Shown: positions 3,847 through 56,042 of the stretch, piece after piece
Position numbering within the stretch: position 1 is the stretch's first letter
How the letters are laid out: the number at the start of each line of letters is the position of its first letter
DNA from: a virus
DNA length: 59,936 bases
Reading direction: 5' to 3' (one strand)
IMG/VR virus record: IMGVR_UViG_3300045988_033553
Coordinates: 1-59,936 of that record
Made by a program: the position numbers and the translations under genes
The notes under the pieces: generated by a model
What the model was told of the DNA's origin: nothing
Databases searched by the model: none
What the model saw: only the letters and a program-made list of their open reading frames with translations

Positions 3847-4473
3847 CTATATTTCATACGTCTTTCCGATAAAACGCTTGTCAATGTACTTACATTCCCA
3901 TTCCAAAACACTTGCGATCCCCGTCATGGTTTCATATCCGGTAGCAAGGCAGTTAATCAAATATCTGATTCTCTCATAAACCTGTCTGATCTGATTTCCC
4001 GAAAATTTAAACTGCGTTTTAAGGCAGACACCAAGCATTGAAAAGTAATTAAATACCTGTGCCAGTAAAAACTTATTTGCCTGTATCATGCAGTTCGGTG
4101 CGATCTTTCTTTCTACCAGATAAAAGCTCTCACGATACGGAATCTTATTTGTTTCCTTTCGCACGTCAATCTTGCATTTATCTTTCAGATAAAAACCAAG
4201 TTCCTCGCCTGTCGTTCCATCCTTTGCATTTTCCACATATGCATCAATGGTCTGCTCAACCTTTATGATTCTTTTGTGTCCGAATCCGAACTTATCATGC
4301 AGTGCCTGATATGCCATCATACGGACGTTATAATAGGATTCCTCTATTAGATAATCCGCATTGCTTTGTGCCTTGGCGTGTCTCTGTATTCCGATCAGTT
4401 CACTCTTGGAATATCCAAGTGGCTGCATCCGCTTTTTCTTTCTTGTCAGTGTATTACTCATTTGCTCTTCCAT
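3847..4473 (-). CDS. hypothetical protein, 208 aa
   Basis: Intact ORF directly downstream of dnaB and a small ORF. Confidence 0.55.
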   Translation of the reverse strand: MEEQMSNTLTRKKKRMQPLGYSKSELIGIQRHAKAQSNADYLIEESYYNVRMMAYQALHDKFGFGHKRIIKVEQTIDAYVENAKDGTTGEELGFYLKDKCKIDVRKETNKIPYRESFYLVERKIAPNCMIQANKFLLAQVFNYFSMLGVCLKTQFKFSGNQIRQVYERIRYLINCLATGYETMTGIASVLEWECKYIDKRFIGKTYEI

Positions 4474-4697
4474 CTCCTCTCTACATCCTCAAAATGGCTA
4501 AATACAAGACTTTGAACATATTTTGATATATTTGTCCGTGCATATTTTTTAATTAGCATTTCCCCTTCTTCCATCATTCCTTGGAACCACTCATCTTCGT
4601 TATCAGCTTCATAAAACTGCTGCCGGAATTTATAATAGTCATTAAAAAACTGCCATTCTTCGGAACCTTTTTCAAATTTCTTACTTGCCATAATCAT
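4458..4697 (-). CDS. hypothetical protein, 79 aa
   Basis: Intact ORF, co-oriented. Confidence 0.5.
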   Translation of the reverse strand: MIMASKKFEKGSEEWQFFNDYYKFRQQFYEADNEDEWFQGMMEEGEMLIKKYARTNISKYVQSLVFSHFEDVERRWKSK

Positions 4698-4704
4698 TCA
4701 CCTT

Positions 4705-6012
4705 TTAATCAAATGGTGTGCCGCCACATACTTCTCGGAAACCGTCTTTCTGTCGCATCCGTGCTTGAATCTGTTCAATGGTTTCGGTTCGCTCCATAAA
4801 TTCCATACGATCACCTTCAAACTGAACAACTTCTCTAAACGGTGTACCCTGTCGATTCTTTTCAACTTTCAAGCCTTTAAATTTTCTGTCTTCATCCAAA
4901 TTCCACATAAGAATAATATTGGAAGCATCCTGCTCAATATCTCCGGATTCTCTTAATTCGGACATTGTAGGCTCTTTCGTTGCATTCATTTCCGATACTC
5001 GGTTAAGCTGTGACAATAGGATGATCGGAACGTGAAGCTCTCTCGCAAGTGCTTTGAATTGCTTCGAAACTTCCCCGACTTCGGATGCACGGTTATTGAA
5101 CTTCCGGTTACACCGTACCAATTGCAGATAGTCAACTACGATCACGTCATATCTTTGATGCCTGCATTGCGTTCTTATTTCCTCAATAACATTTGTCTGA
5201 TCGTCAATTGTGATCGGATATTTTTCAAGTTCATCATTTGCCTTGTCAAATGCTTCTTTCTCTCCACCAAGAAAAGCCTTTGCCCTGCGAACTCTTGTCA
5301 GACCAATCTTTGACATTCTTGAAACAAACCTTTCATAAATCTGACTGTTGTTCATCTCCATGTTGTAGTAACAAGTGTTATAGCCTTTTCTTGCCATATT
5401 CTCGATTATTTGTGCCACAATAGCAGACTTACCAACTCCCGGTCTCGCGGCAACAACTGTAATGTCTCCGCCTTCAAGACCGCCAAGGCAATCGTCAAGA
5501 TGGTAAAATCCTGTCTTTACCCTGTCCTCTCCAACATCATCATTGAAGTATTTATCTTTGTTCTCTGATACGATTTGCTTCATCAACTTAGATTTCTTCA
5601 ACTGATTAACTTGGATTTCTTCAAGCCTTGTAAGAACTTCCGCGATCGAATTATCAATATCACACGGTCTAAGGCTCACTCTCTGGAAAAGGCTTTTCGT
5701 TTCCCTTGCCCGCCAATCCTTAATGACTGCATCCGCATAGTTTTTCATTGCTGTCGATAACGGAGTTGCGGCAACACATTCCTTAAGCTCACCGGCAATC
5801 ATTTCCGGCTCCCATTTGTGGTTTTCAAGTGACTGAGACAGCGAAACGATATTGATGTTTTCACCCCGGTCATACATGGCAAGCATTTCAGCAAAAGCAT
5901 CTTGGCAAAATTCAGAGCTGAACATTTCCGGCTTCAATTTGTTGTAAACCTTAAACATGGAATCATTGTCGATCAGTACGCAACCGATCACTCCCTGTTC
6001 TGCTTCCGTCAA
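4705..6012 (-). CDS. dnaB: replicative DNA helicase DnaB
   Basis: 435 aa. Walker A AARPGVGKSA, the DYLQL motif and the SELRESGDIEQDAS arginine-finger region are characteristic of DnaB. Confidence 0.9.
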   Translation of the reverse strand: MTEAEQGVIGCVLIDNDSMFKVYNKLKPEMFSSEFCQDAFAEMLAMYDRGENINIVSLSQSLENHKWEPEMIAGELKECVAATPLSTAMKNYADAVIKDWRARETKSLFQRVSLRPCDIDNSIAEVLTRLEEIQVNQLKKSKLMKQIVSENKDKYFNDDVGEDRVKTGFYHLDDCLGGLEGGDITVVAARPGVGKSAIVAQIIENMARKGYNTCYYNMEMNNSQIYERFVSRMSKIGLTRVRRAKAFLGGEKEAFDKANDELEKYPITIDDQTNVIEEIRTQCRHQRYDVIVVDYLQLVRCNRKFNNRASEVGEVSKQFKALARELHVPIILLSQLNRVSEMNATKEPTMSELRESGDIEQDASNIILMWNLDEDRKFKGLKVEKNRQGTPFREVVQFEGDRMEFMERTETIEQIQARMRQKDGFREVCGGTPFD

Positions 6013-14337: not shown

Positions 14338-14961
14338 TTAATTTTCCTCCTCTAATACATTAATTTTGCTTACAGACACCTCATATGCTGTTCTCTGCTC
14401 TTCCGTCCCGTCTTCGTACATCTTTACATACCCACGGCTCTGAATGCGTCCGGTAAGTTTCAAATGCGTTCCAACCGGAAGTCCAGATGTATACACCGCA
14501 TTTCTGCCCCAGACAATGCATGGGATATAATCTGATTTGCCATAGGAACGATTGACTGCGATTAATAAATCTGCAATTTCTCTTCCAAGCGGAGTTTTCC
14601 TGTAAATCGGTTCTTTGCATACATATCCGTCAAGCTGGATTTTGTTCAAATCTGTATGCTCTCCCGGATTTACTTTTTCGATTTCACGGACGAATACATC
14701 TAGTAACAGACAATTTCTCTTTTCCTCGTGTTTGTTATAAGAACGATACACACCGGAAACATTAACGGCAGTGCCCGTGTATTTATCGTTCAGATTAATT
14801 AATCTCTCTGAAATAATTAATGGGATAATATCAGCCGTCCCACTTAATCTATCCACTTTGAGGTGCATATTATAAAATCCCTCTCCAAACACCTCATGGT
14901 TAAATTCCGGCTCTGTGATAATCGTTCCTGTAAGTTTCACTTTATTGTTTTCTGCTCTCAT
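14338..14961 (-). CDS. ssb: single-stranded DNA-binding protein, apparently two OB folds in one chain
   Basis: Two similar halves (KVKLTGTIITEPEF... and KIQLDGYVCKEPIYR...LKLTGRIQSR) with SSB-like OB strings. Confidence 0.6.
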   Translation of the reverse strand: MRAENNKVKLTGTIITEPEFNHEVFGEGFYNMHLKVDRLSGTADIIPLIISERLINLNDKYTGTAVNVSGVYRSYNKHEEKRNCLLLDVFVREIEKVNPGEHTDLNKIQLDGYVCKEPIYRKTPLGREIADLLIAVNRSYGKSDYIPCIVWGRNAVYTSGLPVGTHLKLTGRIQSRGYVKMYEDGTEEQRTAYEVSVSKINVLEEEN

Positions 14962-15010: not shown

Positions 15011-15346
15011 CTATTGCTTTGATTGGGAATCATTCAGCTTTGGTCGGTTCGGATGATTCCTTTTCTTTTTCATAACTTCTTTATAACAAGGAAGTTTCTC
15101 TTTATCTTCGTTGCTGTCGCAGATATAAATAATTCCATCGTCTGTTTCTTCATCTTTAAAAACATGATCCTCGACTATTTCTTCTGCTTCTGTCCATCCT
15201 CCTTCGATTTTTGTTCCAAGATAAATCAACAACAAGCCGCTCAACACTGGAATTGCAATGATTGGATTCTCCGCAGCGTCCACACTGATTCCAAGAAAAA
15301 AGAGTAATGCACCGGCTAATTCAATTACCTTTGCTAACTTCTTCAT
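15011..15346 (-). CDS. membrane protein, hypothetical
   Basis: Start at MKKLAKVIELAG; two hydrophobic helices, then an acidic/basic tail. Confidence 0.5.
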   Translation of the reverse strand: MKKLAKVIELAGALLFFLGISVDAAENPIIAIPVLSGLLLIYLGTKIEGGWTEAEEIVEDHVFKDEETDDGIIYICDSNEDKEKLPCYKEVMKKKRNHPNRPKLNDSQSKQ

Positions 15347-15353
15347 AGACACA

Positions 15354-15734
15354 TCACTCCTGCCACTTATAGGAACCGTTGACAATCTCCTCACCATACA
15401 AGGAAACAAAATCTGTTATTAATGCGATAAACTCTGAATTTGTCGGTTTTCCTTTTTCCACTGAAACCGTATAGCCAAAAATTTTGTTGATCGCATTTGT
15501 ATTGCCATTTGTCCAAGTAACTTCTATCGCGTGCCGGATTGATCTTTCTACTCTCCAGACTGTATCGCTGTTTTCTTCTGCAATTTCAGTGTAAAGTCCT
15601 TTAATAATGTGGATAAGTTTGCTTCTATTTTCAAGACATTTCTCAACCGCACTTATTATGTAACCGTAACCCTTAAGGCTATGTTTTACGCCGATCTGAT
15701 CTAATGTCTTTCTTAAGTTCATTTGTCTATCCAT
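15354..15734 (-). CDS. Spo0A C-terminal (0A-box DNA-binding) domain protein lacking a receiver domain
   Basis: [11 protein letters not shown]..., [18 protein letters not shown] and [21 protein letters not shown] align with the Spo0A effector-domain hallmark strings; only 126 aa. Confidence 0.85.
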   Translation of the reverse strand: [126 protein letters not shown]

Positions 15735-15746
15735 GAATACCTCCTG

Positions 15747-16565
15747 TTAATCCTTTCCAACTCCGTATCTGATTGCCATTTCCTTCACAATAGCTGTATA
15801 TCCCTCGATCAACTTCTTATCCTCTGCAATAATATCCACATAGGATAATTTGTCTCTGGTTGATTTACAGATACCCTCGTCTGCCATTCTCCTGCGCTTG
15901 TTAGTCAGCCGCTGCTTCAGATTTACACCCATTCGCTTTGACAACAGTTCGTAGCTTTCGGCTCTTACTTGGCTGTATGCCTGTCCGCCACCAAGTTCCA
16001 TGCTGATTTTTCTTAAAATATTTCCAGTATCATCACGCCATGATGTTGTATCAAGTGCAACCACTTCTCGGATGCTCTCAACTCTCTGTTCCACATGGTT
16101 CAGTTGTTCTGCCTGCCGTTTCTGTTCTAACTGCTGTTCTGCTACAGAATTGAAAATCTTCTGGAACATCTGCAACTCCGGTGATAACTGATTGAGGTCA
16201 ATTACCTTTTGTTTCACACGTTCTTCCAAGGTTGTGAAATAATCTCGTGCTTCTTCTGCTTTCACTCCATTTCCTTTCATAGAAAGTTTCTTTGCAAAAT
16301 GAGCTGTGAGTTTGTAATCATCACGCTTTACAATACCGCCCGTAGGCGTCTCGACATTAATGTCGAACCGCCAAAAATCCTCATTTTCAACGGCAAATTC
16401 ATTATCAACAATGTTTGATTTCGCCCATCTTGAAAACTGTCCCTGTGTCAATTCCAAGAACGCATACAGCTTTCTTGCGGTGGTCATTCCGTTTTCATCA
16501 ACACCAAGCGCAATCTCAATCGGTGTCTGCATTTTTGCTTGTTTTAACTCTTCCGTTTCCTCCAA
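15747..16565 (-). CDS. phage antirepressor (AntA/AntB N-terminal domain, ORF6C-like C-terminus)
   Basis: TARKLYAFLELTQGQFSRWAKSNIVDNEFAVENEDFW ... LTAHFAKKLSM fits the AntA/AntB pattern. Confidence 0.65.
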   Translation of the reverse strand: MEETEELKQAKMQTPIEIALGVDENGMTTARKLYAFLELTQGQFSRWAKSNIVDNEFAVENEDFWRFDINVETPTGGIVKRDDYKLTAHFAKKLSMKGNGVKAEEARDYFTTLEERVKQKVIDLNQLSPELQMFQKIFNSVAEQQLEQKRQAEQLNHVEQRVESIREVVALDTTSWRDDTGNILRKISMELGGGQAYSQVRAESYELLSKRMGVNLKQRLTNKRRRMADEGICKSTRDKLSYVDIIAEDKKLIEGYTAIVKEMAIRYGVGKD

Positions 16566-16970: not shown

Positions 16971-17156
16971 CTACTCCAATAAATACTCAATCGTAACCCC
17001 GAAGTAATCTGCAATCTTTTTCAGCTTGTCTGCCTTTGGCTTGCTCTTTCCAGATTTCCAATCTGAAAATACTGTAGGCGCAAGACCAATATCTTTTGCA
17101 ACTCTGTATGTAGAAATTCCTCTTGCCTTTACAAGCTGTTCAAACTTCTGATACAT
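16971..17156 (-). CDS. XRE-family HTH regulator, Cro-like (first gene of the leftward early operon)
   Basis: 61 aa. GISTYRVAKDIGLAPTVFSDWKSGKSKPKADKLKKIADYFGVTIEYLL is a classic HTH_XRE. Confidence 0.8.
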   Translation of the reverse strand: MYQKFEQLVKARGISTYRVAKDIGLAPTVFSDWKSGKSKPKADKLKKIADYFGVTIEYLLE

Positions 17157-17173
17157 TTAAACACTCCTTTCCC

Positions 17174-17202
17174 TTGAAATTAGTTAGAATATTCTATATA
17201 AT
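17174..17202 (+). promoter_or_regulatory. sigma-A-type promoter TTGAAA-17-TATAAT with a 12-bp palindrome TAGAATATTCTA in the spacer
   Basis: Hexamers at 17174-17179 and 17197-17202; palindrome at 17185-17196. Confidence 0.5.
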
Positions 17203-17237
17203 TTTCTTGTAACATTTTGTGAATGGAGGTGATAATC

Positions 17238-17426
17238 ATGAATTCTTACCGCACCATAACTGGCTATTGCCAGACACAAAAGATAACCTACTCCGTTGTT
17301 CTTAATTGCATAGATGCCGGAGATGGAAGTTACTTAAAGGGTACTGTTCAATGTAACTATGTAAAATACGGTGGTTCGTGTGAACAATGCTCCTTGCGGA
17401 ATAATTATCCAGAAAATTTCCGCTAA
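17238..17426 (+). CDS. hypothetical Cys-containing protein, 62 aa
   Basis: ATG preceded by GGAGGTGATAATC; followed by a terminator. Confidence 0.5.
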   Translation: MNSYRTITGYCQTQKITYSVVLNCIDAGDGSYLKGTVQCNYVKYGGSCEQCSLRNNYPENFR

Positions 17427-17431
17427 TTCTG

Positions 17432-17466
17432 TAAGAGCCGAGCAATCGGCTCTTACAGTTTTTAAA
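17432..17466 (+). terminator. rho-independent terminator
   Basis: Stem AAGAGCCG/CGGCTCTT (17433-17440 / 17447-17454), then a T-run. Confidence 0.6.
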
Positions 17467-17584
17467 ATATTCTAACTTTTTATTGCAAATAGTTAGGAAA
17501 TCCGTTATAATATGTTTCGGTCAAGAAAAAATAAACGGTTCCCTTTTTTAATTATGAAATTGCAACCGTTTTGTCAAAAACTAT

Positions 17585-17682: not shown

Positions 17683-18048
17683 ATGTACGAAATATTTTTG
17701 AAATTGCTTGAAGAAAAAGGCGTATCTGCATACAAAGTTGGAAAAGCAACTGGGATAGCCGGTTCTACTTTTACTGATTGGAAAACTGGTAGAAGTACTC
17801 CAAAACAAGACAAATTACAGAAGATAGCTGATTACTTTGGAGTAACACTTGATTATCTTATGACTGGAAAAGAACAAAATTCTTCTTATTCTGATGATAT
17901 GGCTGATTTGTTAGTCGAAGTGGCTAGAAGTGATGACTACGATAGAATCAAAAGATTATTAACGTATTTTTCTTCTTTGAGCAATAAAGATAAAGATTCT
18001 GTAGAAAATATAATAAAATCTCTTTCCGAAAAAAGTGATAAAAAATAA
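17683..18048 (+). CDS. XRE-family repressor, CI-like
   Basis: N-terminal HTH GVSAYKVGKATGIAGSTFTDWKTGRSTPKQDKLQKIADYFGVTLDYLM is paralogous to the 61-aa regulator, with an extra C-terminal domain; transcribed away from the early genes. Confidence 0.75.
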   Translation: MYEIFLKLLEEKGVSAYKVGKATGIAGSTFTDWKTGRSTPKQDKLQKIADYFGVTLDYLMTGKEQNSSYSDDMADLLVEVARSDDYDRIKRLLTYFSSLSNKDKDSVENIIKSLSEKSDKK

Positions 18049-18070
18049 GAGCGGTCAATCCCGCTCTTTT
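18047..18070. terminator. bidirectional hairpin terminator between convergent genes
   Basis: AAGAGCGG / CCGCTCTT stem with a 6-nt loop, A-run upstream and T-run downstream. Confidence 0.55.
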
Positions 18071-18195
18071 TCCATGCCAGAAATAAATCTGTAATAAAAC
18101 TTTAGTTTGTTTAAATCCATTTTATCTAACAAGTTTAAAATCATTTCTCTGTATTCTTCTTCTAAGTTTTCATTCTCAACCTCATTTTCCCCCAT
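18055..18195 (-). CDS. small acidic hypothetical protein, 46 aa (moron-like)
   Basis: Hand translation MGENEVENENLEEEYREMILNLLDKMDLNKLKFYYRFISGMEKERD; RBS GGAGGAAATCAAT; has its own promoter. Confidence 0.4.
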   Translation of the reverse strand: MGENEVENENLEEEYREMILNLLDKMDLNKLKFYYRFISGMEKERD

Positions 18196-18240
18196 ATTGA
18201 TTTCCTCCAATCATTCCGCACTTCCGATAGCGATAAACAA

Positions 18241-18269
18241 ATTATAGAACTTATGTTCGATACCGTCAA
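18241..18269 (-). promoter_or_regulatory. near-consensus promoter TTGACG-17-TATAAT (minus strand)
   Basis: Plus-strand attata at 18241-18246 and cgtcaa at 18264-18269; upstream palindrome ACAAACtcGTTTGT at 18296-18309. Confidence 0.55.
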
Positions 18270-18584
18270 CCCCATTTGACAAATTGCTACAAATTACAAA
18301 CTCGTTTGTAGTTGAGGGACAAGAAAACGCCTTATCCCGCCCCTCTGCCAGAACTTGAAGTGCCCTTATCGGACAATTTTATTTTACAAATTTTCCCGCA
18401 AACATTCAATTTCTTTCGGTCGCAAGTTTCGACAGGTAAATTTCTTATTGTCACATAATGTCGATTGATTAGTTTAAATTTTGTTAAAAAATTAATTACT
18501 GGTTGAAAATTATGCATCTGCCAGTTATCTGTGATGAATTTTAAGTGCATAATTTTCCTTTCTGCCCGTAGGCCTGTTATTCAA

Positions 18585-18625
18585 AAGAGCCGGCTACACA
18601 ACACATGGTCATGTAATCGGCTCTT
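18585..18625 (+). terminator. hairpin reusing the same 8-bp stem as the 17433 terminator, with a 25-nt loop and T-rich tail
   Basis: AAGAGCCG at 18585-18592 pairs with CGGCTCTT at 18618-18625. Confidence 0.35.
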
Positions 18626-18666
18626 GGGCTCTTTATTTTATTCTAATTCTACTTTCATTTACATTT

Positions 18667-42344: not shown

Positions 42345-42367
42345 ACGCCAGATTTTTTTCTAGCAAA

Positions 42368-42449
42368 CGCCGTACACAGGATTTGAACCTGCAAGCCTTT
42401 TACAGCCAACGGTTTTCAAGACCGCTCCCTCACCACCCGGACATACGGC
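42368..42449 (-). tRNA. tRNA-Ser (anticodon UGA)
   Basis: Hand fold: acceptor GCCGTAT/GTACGGC, anticodon arm GCGGT-CTTGAAA-ACCGT, long variable arm, T arm GCAGG-TTCAAAT-CCTGT. Confidence 0.75.
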
Positions 42450-42453
42450 ATAG

Positions 42454-42539
42454 CGCAGTGTGCAGGATTCGAACCTACAAAGCGAATAAACGCCCGACCG
42501 GCTAGCAACCGGCTCCAATTCCAATTATGGGAACACTGC
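42454..42539 (-). tRNA. tRNA-Ser (anticodon GCU)
   Basis: Acceptor GCAGTGT/ACACTGC, anticodon arm GCCGG-TTGCTAG-CCGGT, long variable arm, T loop TTCGAAT. Confidence 0.75.
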
Positions 42540-42629
42540 ATCTTGATGGTGCGATTTCTTAAACAACCCATCCATTACAACTGTCTACCACGCACCTGCC
42601 AAACAGTATTTTTAGGGAGTTGAGTGAAA

Positions 42630-42719
42630 TAGGGAAGAGAGGAATCGAACCTCTATTGTTTACCACTTGGAAACTGATTTACAGTCAGCCGCAACACCGC
42701 CAATCGTTGCCGCTTCCCC
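42630..42719 (-). tRNA. tRNA-Tyr (anticodon GUA)
   Basis: Acceptor GGGGAAG/CTTCCCT, D arm GCAA...TTGC, anticodon arm GCTGA-CTGTAAA-TCAGT, long variable arm, T arm AGAGG-TTCGATT-CCTCT. Confidence 0.75.
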
Positions 42720-42796
42720 AAAATGCGCGGACACCTCACTCCATATCTCTGTACGCGACCGCGCTACGCATACAGTATCAGATCAGCTTGGCACCA

Positions 42797-42883
42797 TCGG
42801 AACGGAAGGATTCGAACCTTCAATCCGGCTCTCGTTGTTGTTTTCCGTGTACACGCCACTTTTACCAATTAAGCTACGTTCCG
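42797..42883 (-). ncRNA. tRNA-Pro-like element A without a recognisable anticodon arm
   Basis: Acceptor CGGAACG/CGTTCCG plus A73; TA-GCTT-AATTGGTAA-AAGT D arm; T arm GAAGG-TTCGAAT-CCTTC. The 35 nt between them (GGCGTGTACACGGAAAACAACAACGAGAGCCGGATT) give no 5-bp/7-nt arm. Confidence 0.5.
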
Positions 42884-43003
42884 AAACCGCCATCAGACGG
42901 TTAGCAATAATGTTTATCGTGCCATGCGTTGCACTAGGCATACAAAATGCCGATTACATCCAAACCATAGAGCGCATGCAAGCAAACAGCATAATTTGAC
43001 CGC

Positions 43004-43411: not shown

Positions 43412-43500
43412 TCGGAACGGCAGGACTTGAACCTGCGGCTATCAATTCATTAGAGCATGGAAGAATGAAAAGATTGCTCTTTCCTCTGAGCTACGTTCCG
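43412..43500 (-). ncRNA. tRNA-Pro-like element C with an 11-position anticodon helix and a 12-nt loop
   Basis: Same acceptor CGGAACG/CGTTCCG plus A73 as element A; D arm GCTC-AGAGGAAA-GAGC; T arm GCAGG-TTCAAGT-CCTGC; middle ATC-TT-TTCATT [CTTCCATGCTCT] AATGAA-TT-GAT. Confidence 0.5.
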
Positions 43501-43974: not shown

Positions 43975-44046
43975 TTTCTTTAGCAGGATTCGAACCTGCG
44001 AATACTGGAATCAAAATCCAGTGCCTTACCGCTTGGCGATAGCGCT
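43975..44046 (-). pseudogene. tRNA-Gln(UUG)-like with a non-complementary acceptor stem
   Basis: TC-GCCAAGCGGTAAGGC-A-CTGGA-TTTTGAT-TCCAG-ATTC-GCAGG-TTCGAAT-CCTGC is canonical Gln, but 5' AGCGCTA versus 3' TAAAGAA pair at only 3 of 7 positions. Confidence 0.5.
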
Positions 44047-45773: not shown

Positions 45774-46283
45774 TCAAAATTTTTTAACCAACGCCACCAG
45801 ATATTCCTTTTTCAAGAAAAACCTGTTTATTTTATCCGGTGCATCGTGATTTTCTTTTATGAAATTTTCAGCGGCTTTTCTTACCGCTGCCGCATCCGCC
45901 TTATTAATATAAAGCCCTAAATGATGATTTTTACCGGAAAATTTAATCTGTGCACACCATTTGTCACTCTTTTTATAATAATAAACGCCCTTTATACCGG
46001 ATGAATTGTTTTTATTATCCGGGGCGTTGTATGAATTTAAGCAACTACCTTTTTCGTGTACAAGTTTATCCCTTGCGATGCTGATCGACTCCGCGGCGCG
46101 TTCACGCTTGAGACAACCGCATGACTGCACATAACCGCCAGTTAAACGTGACGTGATATAAAAACATTCATTGCCACAAGAACAGGCGCACCGCCATAAT
46201 GTGCGCCCGTTCTTGTCCTTACCGGCTTTTTCAACAACCTTAAGACGCCCTGTTTCAAACCCTTTCAAATCAACCTTTTTCAT
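45774..46283 (-). CDS. AP2-domain DNA-binding protein with an N-terminal Cys cluster
   Basis: GIKGVYYYKKSDKWCAQIKFSGKNHHLGLYINKADAAAVRKAAE is a typical AP2/integrase DNA-binding domain. Confidence 0.7.
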   Translation of the reverse strand: MKKVDLKGFETGRLKVVEKAGKDKNGRTLWRCACSCGNECFYITSRLTGGYVQSCGCLKRERAAESISIARDKLVHEKGSCLNSYNAPDNKNNSSGIKGVYYYKKSDKWCAQIKFSGKNHHLGLYINKADAAAVRKAAENFIKENHDAPDKINRFFLKKEYLVALVKKF

Positions 46284-46286
46284 TTT

Positions 46287-46631
46287 TTATCTCTCATTTT
46301 CAAGACGTGCCGCAATGTATTCCAGCACTTCTTTCTTTATATCCGCCCACTCTTTACCGTCGATATAAATATACTTATCGCAGCTCTCCCCGGAACCCGT
46401 CGGGGAATGATCTGAAATTCTCAGATCGAAGCTGTCAAGATAATCGCCGTTTTCGTTCTGTATCTCGACGTTGATATAATTACTCATGCCGTAACATCTG
46501 GATGATTCATGATAACATGAGACGTTTTTAAACTTTCTTTCAATCTGTCCCGGCAATGCCTCACATCTTTTTTCAAGGTATGATCTACATGTCTGGTATC
46601 TGTTTTTTAACGTATCAGTGTCAAATCTCAT
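46287..46631 (-). CDS. hypothetical protein, 114 aa
   Basis: Intact ORF. Confidence 0.5.
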   Translation of the reverse strand: MRFDTDTLKNRYQTCRSYLEKRCEALPGQIERKFKNVSCYHESSRCYGMSNYINVEIQNENGDYLDSFDLRISDHSPTGSGESCDKYIYIDGKEWADIKKEVLEYIAARLENER

Positions 46632-46690
46632 ATCCGTTCCCTCCTGTGTACTGGTTCATTGCCTTTCGACAAGATTATAATACACCGTCT

Positions 46691-47098
46691 ATAATGTAAT
46701 GTCAATATATTTTTACATTATTTTTAAAGTATTTATTTTTCTGCATTTTCCACATATTTTATAATGTTTCCAGGCTGCACATCCAGTAGAGCACAGATTT
46801 TTTCTAATGCAATTATTCCGACCATCTCGCCGCGCCTTAATGACTGAATCGCGTTTTCTCCAAGCAGCTTTTCTTTTCTTAGACGCGTTGTATTATAACC
46901 GCTTTCCTTTAATGTCTCTAGCACATCTATTTTATAAGTAAGCACAGTTTAACACCTCTCTTTCATATAAAACAGTATACATTATTTTAAAATTGCTTTC
47001 AAGTATGTTTACATTATAAATAATGCACAAAAATCATTCTTTGTTTATACATTATTTTTGGTGTATTTGTGTATTGCAATTACACCGTTTATAATGTA
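46691..47098. promoter_or_regulatory. Array of six copies of the 8-mer TACATTAT / ATAATGTA flanking the 70-aa HTH gene
   Basis: ATAATGTA at 46691 and 47091; TACATTAT at 46714, 46978, 47010 and 47048. A 17-bp repeat ACACCGT(C/T)TATAATGTA occurs at 46683 and 47082. Confidence 0.6.
46733..46945 (-). CDS. XRE/Cro-type HTH DNA-binding protein, 70 aa
   Basis: NTTRLRKEKLLGENAIQSLRRGEMVGIIALEKICALLDVQPGNIIKY is HTH-like. Confidence 0.6.
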   Translation of the reverse strand: MLTYKIDVLETLKESGYNTTRLRKEKLLGENAIQSLRRGEMVGIIALEKICALLDVQPGNIIKYVENAEK

Positions 47099-47303: not shown

Positions 47304-47504
47304 ATGAGAGGAACAGGATTATTTATTAATTGGGAATCAGGAAATAAAAACAGTAATGCGATTCAGGAATTTGAAAAAAACGGCATCAACTGGGAATATA
47401 ACCACTTTGGAACACTTACAGCCGACTTTTACGGTATCGGGATTTTTGAAAAGGTCGATTTTGAACATATCCAAGGCGATGTGTTTGAAATCTGCATAGC
47501 ATAG
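47304..47504 (+). CDS. hypothetical protein, 66 aa
   Basis: ATG 2 nt after the previous stop; GGGAGGTG RBS. Confidence 0.5.
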   Translation: MRGTGLFINWESGNKNSNAIQEFEKNGINWEYNHFGTLTADFYGIGIFEKVDFEHIQGDVFEICIA

Positions 47505-47582
47505 CCGAAACGCTCCGATCTGGAGCGTCAGCCGCGGGATGGTCGCCGTGGCTCTGATGATGGCAGACCAGAAAGGGAAAAT

Positions 47583-47900
47583 ATGAGAACATACGAGCAG
47601 GATTTGAAAGAGCTTAATATTTCAGCAGAAGAATTTGATAACATAATTTCACACATTTACGATAAAACAGCCGATGAAATGGCGGTACTTGCTAAGGCGA
47701 TTAAAAGCGGCGCGGCTGTTCTCCCGACTGTAAAAAGAGCATTTGAGCGCGTTCTTGCAATTAGACAGGCAGAAAGACAGGAAGCATATAACATTTATTA
47801 TAACGATTTAAATACTATGTGTCATAGCTGTAAAAAATGCGGTATAAGTTGTAACGGTACAATTTGTAAAGCTTGGACTGGTTGCGCAATGAAAAATTAA
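47583..47900 (+). CDS. hypothetical protein, 105 aa, with a C-terminal Cys cluster
   Basis: RBS AAAGGGAAAAT; CHSCKKCGISCNGTICKAWTGC. Confidence 0.5.
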   Translation: MRTYEQDLKELNISAEEFDNIISHIYDKTADEMAVLAKAIKSGAAVLPTVKRAFERVLAIRQAERQEAYNIYYNDLNTMCHSCKKCGISCNGTICKAWTGCAMKN

Positions 47901-54631: not shown

Positions 54632-54840
54632 GTGTTACCTTTAGTGTTACCTTTGATTTTGACCTTTAGAAAAGACACCATTCAAAAACTCCTTTCTTTC
54701 AGTAAAATCAAGGCTTCACAAGGTTTTCTTAAATAAAAATAAAGTAGCGGAAGGGAGATTCGAACTCGGTATCAATTCTCTCAAACCCGCATAAATACTG
54801 AATTTCTTTATCTCCAAAGGTGTTACCTCGTGTTACCTTT
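54632..54840. mobile_element. attP region: tRNA 3'-end core flanked by four GTGTTACCT(TT) arm-type repeats
   Basis: Repeats at 54632-54642, 54644-54654, 54820-54828 and 54830-54840. The core 54744-54767 reads on the minus strand GAGTTCGAATCTCCCTTCCGCTAC (T loop, T stem 3' strand, acceptor 3' strand). Confidence 0.6.
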
Positions 54841-56042
54841 TACATTGATAATGCTTTTGCAATATATTCCTGCATTTCACTCTCTGTCTTGTTATTAAAA
54901 TAGTAATGATCGAGAGTTGTTCTGATATCTGTATGCCCCATTTGTGTTTTTATTACCGATTCTGGAACATTTCCATCTATCAACTTTGTTGCATATGTCT
55001 TTCTTGCCTTGTGAATTGAACGTTCACCAATTCCTATTCTATCACATATCACATATAGCCGCCTTGTAAATGCCTGACCTTTTATTCGTTTACCGTTTTT
55101 CATAAAAATATATTGCCCAAATGGATTGAGCATTTTTATTTTTCTCATAAGTTCTTTGGTATCTGCGGTAATTATAACATCTCTAAACCCGGCATCACTT
55201 TTAGGAAAATTTTGAACATCAAATACATATTTGCCATTATCATCTCTATATCTTATTTCTGTCTTTGATATATGTATCTTATTTTCTCCGACATCAGACC
55301 ATGAGAGGGTAGATATTTCCCCAACTCTCAATCCTGTTTTAAATGCCAAAATAATGCCAAGTTCTATCAATGTAGGCTCATCTTCCATTACAAATCGTTC
55401 AATTAAAAGTTCCTCATCCTTAGAAAATACCAATTCGCAGTCTGACTTATGGTTCTTTTTAAATGACTTTTCCGAAATTTCCAAATCACCCATAAAACTG
55501 GTTATGCTCAGGCTGGTATAATGTTTTTTCTTTGCATATTTGAAAATTCCGTTAATCAATATCCGCATATCAGAATAAGCTTTTTGCGTAAGTTCCAGTT
55601 TTGAAATAGCTGTTTTTATGAATGATTCCAATATTTCTTCATCAATGTACCGGATTTTTCTATTTGCAATCGGCAAATACTTATTTTCAAAAAATCTTTT
55701 AAAATTTGTCTCGTACTTGTCCTTTGTCTGTCTTGTTATTTCACCATATTCAAGTTTTTCAGAAATCCAATTAGAATATACTTGAATAACTGTAGGTTCA
55801 TCCTCCTTAGCTTTATAGAACTTTACTATTTCATCTTCAATTGCTTTTTCAGATGTTCTCTTTACAAGTCTCTTTCCTCTCTTATTATCTTCATCTGGCA
55901 AATATGTGTAAAACTTTCCATCTTTTCCTTGCCAAATGCTGTAAGTGTGTTTTTCAATAAATTTTTTCCTTTCGTTCATTTCAATTTTTTTCTGAATGGT
56001 GTCTATGTTGATAATACCATTTTCGATGGCAATATTCAACAA
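54840..56042 (-). CDS. int: tyrosine recombinase / phage integrase
   Basis: 400 aa. GLRVGEI (Arg I), HKARKTYAT (His-x-x-Arg), GHTDIRTTLDHYY (His/Tyr nucleophile region). Confidence 0.9.
   Translation of the reverse strand: MLNIAIENGIINIDTIQKKIEMNERKKFIEKHTYSIWQGKDGKFYTYLPDEDNKRGKRLVKRTSEKAIEDEIVKFYKAKEDEPTVIQVYSNWISEKLEYGEITRQTKDKYETNFKRFFENKYLPIANRKIRYIDEEILESFIKTAISKLELTQKAYSDMRILINGIFKYAKKKHYTSLSITSFMGDLEISEKSFKKNHKSDCELVFSKDEELLIERFVMEDEPTLIELGIILAFKTGLRVGEISTLSWSDVGENKIHISKTEIRYRDDNGKYVFDVQNFPKSDAGFRDVIITADTKELMRKIKMLNPFGQYIFMKNGKRIKGQAFTRRLYVICDRIGIGERSIHKARKTYATKLIDGNVPESVIKTQMGHTDIRTTLDHYYFNNKTESEMQEYIAKALSM

Follow-up and report, generated by a model that had tools for sequence, protein, structure and literature searches.

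Homologs of spo0A truncated to the effector domain have been described in human-gut phages by Schwartz et al. (mBio 2023), who aligned 29 virome sequences and inferred that phage Spo0A is independent of host signals (PMC10294663). Here we analysed a gene at positions 15354..15734 of the IMG/VR virus record IMGVR_UViG_3300045988_033553; the whole stretch of 59,936 bases is called the window below. The gene encodes a protein of 126 amino acids (aa) that consists of a Spo0A DNA-binding domain (Spo0A_C) without a receiver domain. It is likewise phage-borne, effector-only and found in gut viromes, and the same meaning is proposed for it; no essential difference from the published set was found, and as an effector-only gene on a phage genome it is a member of that set. 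An earlier reading of this DNA from its letters alone (the original prediction) had called the design notable. As a claim of novelty this did not last, since the class was published in 2023 and proteins 98–100% identical were already in public databases, one of them labelled Caudoviricetes Spo0A_C. The gene is a correct re-discovery of a published class, and the additions made here are incremental: a separate lineage with its own C-terminal tail, a fixed slot in the early operon, a dN/dS value (nonsynonymous over synonymous divergence), no excess of 0A boxes and a probable Roseburia host. In the literature searched, no experimental follow-up on phage Spo0A domains was found, including on their effect on host sporulation.

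Several other systems are close enough to be compared. Cellular Spo0A (TIGR02875) shares the effector fold and the recognition helix with the window protein, at 47–53% identity between C-domains across several Clostridia lineages; in contrast to it, the window protein has no receiver, phospho-acceptor or linker, scores below the family cut-off, belongs to a separate clade and has an extended C-terminal helix. Receiver-less or crippled laboratory forms of Spo0A (the proteolytic fragment, Spo0A-DBD and sad67) bind DNA independently of phosphorylation (PMC3485338), as is predicted for the window protein; they were engineered from cellular Spo0A, whereas the window gene is natural, evolves independently and lies on a phage. 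Phage sigF and sigG homologs are also phage copies of a sporulation regulator that are expected to derail the host programme, and their ectopic expression lowered the spore yield of B. subtilis, as far as the summary in PMC10294663 goes. They belong to another protein family, act at a later step and are experimentally supported, whereas the effect of the window protein is a prediction. In phages phi29 and Nf, whose genomes contain 0A boxes, the same Spo0A/0A-box code ties phage development to host sporulation (PMC2731898). Their strategy is to provide sites at which host Spo0A~P is read; the phage studied here does the reverse, in that it encodes the protein and has no surplus of sites.

A complete Spo0A effector domain without a receiver

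The original prediction, which had not given the strand of the open reading frame (ORF), had read it as the Spo0A effector domain over its whole length. The ORF lies on the minus strand and begins with ATG. Its match to Pfam Spo0A_C (PF08769) had E=1.4e-33 and 115.4 bits against a cut-off of 25, and residues 9–108 covered profile positions 3–102 of 104, which indicated a full domain and bore that reading out. With the NCBIfam equivalog model TIGR02875, it aligned to positions 149–255 of 262 only, and its score of 113 bits was below the equivalog cut-off of 200, so that it was not recognised as a full-length Spo0A. The sole matches in a PDB sequence search were the Spo0A C-domains 1fc3 and 1lq1 (E about 1e-25), and the alignment with them reproduced the two motif correspondences with B. 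subtilis Spo0A that had been quoted. An AlphaFold (AF2) model was built on 31 lineage members, with a predicted local distance difference test score (pLDDT) of 86.5. When it was compared with the PDB by Foldseek (E ≤ 0.001), only 1fc3 and 1lq1 were matched, with template-modelling (TM) scores of 0.68–0.90 and root-mean-square deviations (rmsd) of 1.5–2.6 Å over seven chains; the two best had TM 0.79–0.90 and rmsd of ∼2 Å. As modelled, the 126-aa protein has the six-helix Spo0A effector fold with its helix-turn-helix.

That nothing upstream encodes a REC domain was also upheld, the preceding ORF being an antirepressor. A hidden Markov model (HMM) made from four Spo0A receiver domains found nothing in any of the six frames across the 59,936-base window (best E = 1.1), and a hidden or frameshifted receiver domain, including a displaced upstream part, was rejected. 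In the same six-frame search with a C-domain HMM, ORF 15354..15734 was the sole match. The ORF is a complete Spo0A effector domain, with neither the REC domain nor the phospho-acceptor aspartate. It has its own ribosome-binding site, AGGAGG at 15740..15745 (minus), which as read from the sequence lies 5 nt before the ATG and within the 12-nt gap that follows the antirepressor stop.

Among 78 cellular Spo0A C-domains, 49 positions reach a conservation of at least 85%, and the window protein keeps 37 of them. Within the recognition helix (R211–E221 in B. subtilis numbering), the segment of which pairs with RVERAIRHAIEV in the PDB alignment, every such position was kept except A215, which is Ser. 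The window protein and all 9 members of its clade retain E213, R214 and R217, which we take to be the base contacts that read the 0A box in the 1LQ1 complex. Also kept were G227, F236, Y238, T239 and D258 as well as the motifs FGYT and KPTNSEFIA. The changes relative to cellular Spo0A were P167K, A168H, H169S, R177I, T194I, P199T, T207D, S210W, A215S, A223T and R226N. The premise that the isolated domain binds DNA without phosphorylation is supported: taken by themselves, the DNA-binding domains of Spo0A from B. subtilis and C. difficile bound their genuine targets with high affinity and free of phosphorylation, and the TGTCGAA core is common to these distant species (PMC3485338). Because the recognition helix is intact and this precedent exists, 0A-box binding without activation is likely, and phosphorylation-free binding aimed at the host regulon is the activity best supported by the sequence.

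The lineage has features of its own. Its N-terminal signature starts with MDRQK, and it ends in a tail, TDF(I/V).L..EEI.NG.Y, in which D108, F109, E116, I117 and Y122 are invariant and G120 is conserved. This tail is missing from cellular Spo0A; in the AF2 model it is predicted to extend the last helix (residues 99–119). The region equivalent to the sigma-A-activating helix (G77–V90) was conserved within the lineage. The explanation that fits best, to which we give a probability of roughly 45%, is that the gene encodes a kinase-independent 0A-box binder, made from the early lytic operon, that interferes with sporulation commitment.

Lineage, selection, gene order and host

A word-indexed protein search gave at least 7,900 matches. 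The best 120 were all at least 92% identical and consisted of Spo0A_C only, with a length of 124–128 aa in all but one, and some were named 'Sporulation initiation factor Spo0A C terminal [Caudoviricetes sp.]'. Such proteins also have families in PHROGs, where their function is given as unknown. An exhaustive search of 50%-identity representatives yielded 7,321 clusters at E ≤ 0.001. Among the best 150 of these, 54 had a receiver domain (genuine Spo0A), 69 were single-domain proteins without a receiver, many of which, at 150–220 aa, may be gene fragments, and 27 were receiver-less with two to four tandem Spo0A_C domains.

A phylogeny against host Spo0A, proposed earlier as a check, was made by neighbour joining (NJ) of the domains, and the window protein stood apart from cellular Spo0A. 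It fell into a small clade of receiver-less proteins only, nested in a 38-leaf clade that held 16 domains of tandem proteins and one receiver-containing sequence; the cellular Spo0A sequences grouped elsewhere. Identity to cellular Spo0A C-domains was 47–49% for Ruminococcus, 51% for Lachnospiraceae and Eubacterium, 50% for Peptococcaceae and 50–53% for unclassified Bacillota metagenome-assembled genomes (MAGs), one of them from soil; Spo0A of Lachnospiraceae/Eubacterium MAGs served as proxies for that of the host species. The identity was flat, at 47–53% across the Clostridia lineages, and therefore recent capture from the host was disfavoured. As judged from tree and identities, the window Spo0A_C did not arise by recent truncation of a host spo0A gene and forms a separate receiver-less lineage.

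In IMG/VR, 208 viral contigs carried relatives, the best 80 of which were all at least 90% identical and lay mostly on contigs of 30–62 kb. From these 80 loci, a Roseburia MAG and the window, 35 distinct alleles were obtained, and dN/dS (mean dN / mean dS) over them was 0.15, which demonstrated that the gene is under purifying selection. The order antirepressor (Ant), Spo0A_C, small transmembrane protein, SSB, orf85 and SbcC-like gene was kept in nearly all of 81 related loci. The adjacency of antirepressor and Spo0A_C had one exception among them, a locus without an AntA-type match to the window gene, and the immunity region upstream was mosaic. In one relative, L039 (IMGVR_UViG_3300029330_000242, ∼4200–5390), the antirepressor stop was lost and the antirepressor and Spo0A_C formed a single in-frame ORF of 399 aa.

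The contexts of diverged lineages were read from metagenome contigs. Two lineages that are ∼70% identical (P0271 and P0313) had the gene in the same slot with different repressors, in the order repressor, cro-like gene, antirepressor, Spo0A_C, small ORFs, SSB and, further on, RecT; in one of the two, a Bro-N/ORF6C antirepressor replaced the other family. In P0143, at 53% identity, the gene was the first of an operon divergent from the packaging genes. IMG/VR scans with the distant stand-alone homologs P0129 and P0143 returned zero loci. A tblastn search of INPHARED gave 13 matches of 40–50% identity. The five that were read, faecal scaffolds filed as 'UNVERIFIED Bacteriophage sp.' (MT835504, MT835737, MT835718, MT835781 and MT835715), contained full-length Spo0A (REC and C-domain), which suggests bacterial DNA among the phage records; the matches were rejected as receiver-less relatives, these five being probably bacterial.

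It is extremely improbable that the gene is a decaying or neutral passenger, that is, a functionless fragment of a captured host spo0A. The truncated architecture would fit such a fragment, but the idea is already contradicted by selection (dN/dS 0.15) and synteny, the position being kept across diverged phages; moreover, the gene encodes the whole domain and has a start codon and a ribosome-binding site of its own, and the lineage stands apart from cellular Spo0A with its own conserved tail. The reading as an interfering 0A-box binder also depends on where the gene lies. The window is essentially one genome of a temperate gut phage of ∼60 kb: it contains terminase, portal, tail, integrase, a cI-like/cro-like pair, SSB, RecT and DnaB genes, and a protein 100% identical to the window Spo0A_C is present on a contig of 60,083 bp. 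Along the minus strand, DNA methylases, integrase (54840..56042), Rha, tRNAs, terminase, portal, capsid, tail and tail-fibre genes come first. They are followed by the divergent pair of a cI-like (plus) and a cro-like (minus) gene and by the antirepressor, Spo0A_C and a small protein with two predicted transmembrane helices. The downstream block comprises SSB, an SbcC-like ATPase, RecT, a metallo-hydrolase, an ERCC4 nuclease, a DnaD-like replisome organiser and the DnaB helicase.

The original prediction had placed the gene in the early operon, after the switch and the antirepressor, and gene order on the cro side agreed with it. The antirepressor gene (15747..16565, minus; AntA N-terminal domain with Pfam E=9e-13, phrog_373 with E=1.7e-44) has its stop codon at 15747–15749, 12 nt from the Spo0A_C start codon, and the gap on the other side of Spo0A_C is 7 nt. 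No terminator-like site was found on the minus strand from the cro-like gene to the Spo0A_C ORF. Because of these tight gaps and the uninterrupted strand, 'early operon, after switch and antirepressor' is a fair label on the sequence read here, and from it we infer the timing of expression.

The same position is what suggests a host-replication blocker, which would bind the 0A boxes at oriC, halt new rounds of chromosome replication and free replisome components for the phage. B. subtilis Spo0A~P binds 0A boxes in the oriC region and inhibits replication initiation. The window gene directly precedes the block of SSB, recombination, replisome-organiser and DnaB genes, and in the phi29/Nf system Spo0A inhibits replication initiation via 0A boxes (PMC2731898). 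But the argument is one of position alone, and in phage early operons the order of the genes says little about what they do, so that we regard this role as very unlikely.

The phage host is probably Roseburia, as judged from similar sequences. A Roseburia MAG contained, on a contig of 141 kb, a mosaic relative of the phage with a 94%-identical homolog, and a homolog of identical length lay mid-way in a 1.22-Mb contig, indicating an integrated prophage. In the tail-spike region, DNA identity to Roseburia phage Jekyll was 83–90%; Jekyll resides as a prophage in R. intestinalis L1-82 (10.1101/575076). The core genome of R. intestinalis includes spo0A and the sporulation sigma factors, and spores have been observed by electron microscopy (PMC11913394). 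For many gut Firmicutes, butyrate producers such as Roseburia among them, transmission and persistence are governed by sporulation. The phage lineage is very abundant, with the gene on more than 200 IMG/VR contigs and thousands of near-identical metagenome proteins.

Proteins with two to four tandem Spo0A_C domains, among them P0121, P0122, P0128, P0126 and P0132, are receiver-less too, and many of their domains fell into the larger NJ clade of the window protein, from which they differ in being multi-domain. Both contexts examined were chromosomal, and for this reason they were rejected as phage relatives: P0328 (two domains) came immediately after a genuine spo0A gene in a MAG of Clostridia (L123), and P0122 (three domains) lay among housekeeping genes (L122). 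P0167 (1003 aa) contains Spo0A_C in three copies, a single sigma-70 region 4 and the C-terminal domain of RNA polymerase alpha, again in three copies, a fusion of Spo0A DNA-binding domains to RNA polymerase modules of kinds usually contacted by activators.

0A boxes and the proposed activity

Perfect TGTCGAA boxes occurred 6 times in the window against 8.3 ± 2.7 expected, and TGNCGAA occurred 30 times against 33 ± 5; enrichment was rejected for both. Boxes with at most one mismatch were depleted, with 150 observed against 181 ± 14 in first-order Markov simulations, and there was no excess of box pairs within 40 bp in the window. The counts thus gave no support to the suggestion that the phage reads its own 0A boxes, with two promoter-proximal boxes left over. 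As no enrichment in the phage was found, host targets are indicated.

The first of these candidate sites, at 18428..18434 (minus), belongs to a block of conserved non-coding DNA; a −35-like TTGAAT (18409) with TAAAAT (18381) lies 18 nt downstream of it. The non-coding block 18049–18666 held four boxes with at most one mismatch, where ∼1.6 were expected. In relatives, a block of ∼170 nt around the 18.43-kb box was near-identical as a whole, and conservation of the box was for this reason rejected as evidence of function. On the minus strand, the stretch 18047–18560, between the tail-fibre genes and the cI-like gene, carried one perfect and three one-mismatch boxes. A strong promoter there (TTGACG, 17 nt, TATAAT; 18269–18241, minus) drives an acidic ORF of ∼46 aa (18195..18055), which ends at a terminator at 18068–18047.

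The second candidate, also a perfect box, lies at 46665..46671 (minus), directly 3' of a near-consensus promoter (TTGACA, 17 nt, TATTATAAT; 46665–46703) that serves a gene at 46631..46287 (minus) and then an HNH endonuclease gene (45774..46283). Among the 36 upstream regions of relatives that were read (from loci L124–L160), the box was perfect in 21, TATCGAA in 6 and absent from 9; eight of the nine had a different 5' untranslated region (5' UTR) and one had unrelated upstream sequence. The DNA upstream of the −10 element was mosaic in relatives, and the box and 5' UTR were mostly kept. The 46.6-kb gene was present in 37 IMG/VR contigs and Spo0A_C in 208, and therefore the two are not linked.

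These boxes are the main reason to consider a phage-internal regulator, acting mainly on the phage promoters at 46.7 kb and 18.4 kb, which would time middle or late transcription or substitute for host Spo0A~P at sporulation-sensing sites. Of the six perfect boxes, two adjoin promoters on the gene strand; 21 of the 36 relatives read have kept the 46.7-kb box despite the mosaic DNA upstream of the −10 element; the 18-kb block is rich in near-perfect boxes; and phi29 and Nf provide a precedent (PMC2731898). Nevertheless, boxes are depleted overall; two of six would be intergenic by chance with a probability of ∼0.1, an estimate that assumes a genome of ∼10% intergenic DNA; the 18.4-kb box belongs to a wholly conserved block; and the 46.6-kb gene and Spo0A_C do not travel together. 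The box is also absent from nine upstream regions, and six relatives have TATCGAA, in which the mutated G is the position where a change in the abrB promoter cut the affinity of the C. difficile Spo0A-DBD ∼10-fold (PMC3485338). A mainly phage-internal role is accordingly considered distinctly unlikely.

Host sites were looked for at cellular spo0A loci. Seven closely related Lachnospiraceae/Eubacterium MAG loci (L015–L021), equivalent to one or two independent observations, had a perfect TGTCGAA 118 nt upstream of spo0A. Twelve Ruminococcus-type or unclassified-Clostridia spo0A loci (L002–L013) had no perfect box within 400 nt. On these sequences, the 0A motif and spo0A autoregulation look conserved in the Lachnospiraceae family.

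For the interfering 0A-box binder, we envisage that the stand-alone effector domain would be made from the cro-side early lytic transcript, together with the antirepressor, SSB, recombination and replication genes. Without a receiver domain, it would need no phosphorylation, and host kinases and phosphatases could not switch it off. It would bind the same TGTCGAA boxes as host Spo0A. Those at spo0A itself and at the promoters of early sporulation would be taken up by its monomeric domains, which would compete there with cooperatively acting Spo0A~P dimers. The host Spo0A regulon would in this way be removed from host control during lytic growth, and the infected or induced cell would be kept from commitment to sporulation, which would abort phage production. 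DNA specificity, host targets and the direction of the effect are what we infer in this scheme. Interference is favoured because a lytic early gene profits from a vegetative host, because the domain is monomeric and without receiver-driven dimerisation, and because the phage sporulation regulators that have been tested, the sigF and sigG homologs, lowered spore yield.

Four points weigh against this scheme. The two perfect boxes beside phage promoters, on the gene strand, have been described above. The changed conserved positions and the lineage's own tail make altered specificity or an extra partner possible. The conservation of G77–V90 suggests that the protein may activate, beyond merely occupying sites. 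The host assignment is based on MAG labels and tail-spike similarity, and one close homolog is labelled Ruminococcus sp.

The third point leads to the opposite effect. Like the activated C-terminal fragment of Spo0A or sad67, the protein might be a constitutive activator that turns Spo0A-dependent promoters on regardless of host signals; stationary-phase and sporulation programmes would follow, and the phage genome would be carried into spores or host physiology reset. In favour of this, the lineage has conserved both D258 and the helix that corresponds to the sigma-A-activating region, and the isolated B. subtilis Spo0A C-domain reportedly stimulated spoIIG transcription in vitro in the work of Grimsley in 1994. 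But the gene lies in the lytic early operon, apart from the lysogeny genes, and lysis would probably precede the completion of sporulation. Without a receiver domain there is also no phosphorylation-driven dimerisation, which Spo0A needs for strong activation at weak multi-box promoters. Schwartz et al. left both directions open (PMC10294663). Overall, constitutive activation seems unlikely here.

A broader version of the interference reading can be drawn. An old Spo0A_C transcription-factor lineage, resident in phages, marked by its tail and fixed behind the antirepressor, would form a kinase-independent switch at the onset of the lytic cycle, shutting off the host sporulation decision and possibly oriC and also touching one or two phage 0A-box promoters. 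We regard this extended version as speculative and, taken as a whole, unlikely. If true, signals would pass both ways between phage and host through the Spo0A code in the abundant Lachnospiraceae of the gut. If the host sporulation decision is truly overridden, phage induction would shape which gut cells sporulate. The locus is compact and conserved, the host genus is probably cultivable and the predictions are clear, which makes it a good candidate for experiments.

Neighbouring genes and other features of the window

The cro-like helix-turn-helix gene of the XRE type, the first of the rightward early operon, lies at 16971..17156 (minus; phrog_8 and phrog_4, transcriptional regulator/repressor), and a divergent promoter region adjoins it at 17157–17222. 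The cI-like XRE repressor, which is divergent from the early operon, is encoded at 17683..18048 (plus; phrog_8, phrog_4 and phrog_3037) and has a promoter-like site at 17483–17511. Between the two, a cysteine-rich ORF of 67 aa (17223..17426, plus) had no match among PHROG families. It has a near-consensus promoter of its own (TTGAAA, 17 nt, TATAAT; 17174–17202) and a strong terminator with a 13-bp stem (17429–17458).

The small gene downstream of Spo0A_C (15011..15346, minus) likely starts at the ATG at 15346, 7 nt past the Spo0A_C stop. Its product is predicted to have two transmembrane helices, on the basis of two hydrophobic stretches judged by eye, and had no family match in domain and PHROG profile searches. 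It adjoins Spo0A_C in close relatives and is swapped for unrelated small ORFs in diverged lineages, for which reason functional coupling was rejected and is probably absent. The SSB gene (14338..14961, minus; Pfam SSB E=4.3e-17) opens the downstream recombination and replication block. In the early operon of a close relative (L113, 16477–17052), a sigma-factor gene (Sigma70_r2 and r4, 191 aa) adjoins RecT; it had no counterpart at that position in the window.

Near the second candidate box, the region at 46.6–48.5 kb showed a GC skew near zero and divergent promoters. It includes a small helix-turn-helix-like gene (46733..46945, minus), judged as such by eye and without a family match. A type II hammerhead ribozyme was found at 47503–47572 (plus; Rfam RF02276, 62.4 bits against a gathering threshold of 37, E=1.5e-10, model positions 1–66 of 66), where it sits between small plus-strand ORFs at 47304..47504 and 47583..47900. 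Besides the tRNA cluster at 42367–42884, Rfam gave two tRNA-like matches that were not called by ARAGORN, at 43412–43500 and 43981–44041 (minus), with 47.3 and 48.7 bits, respectively.

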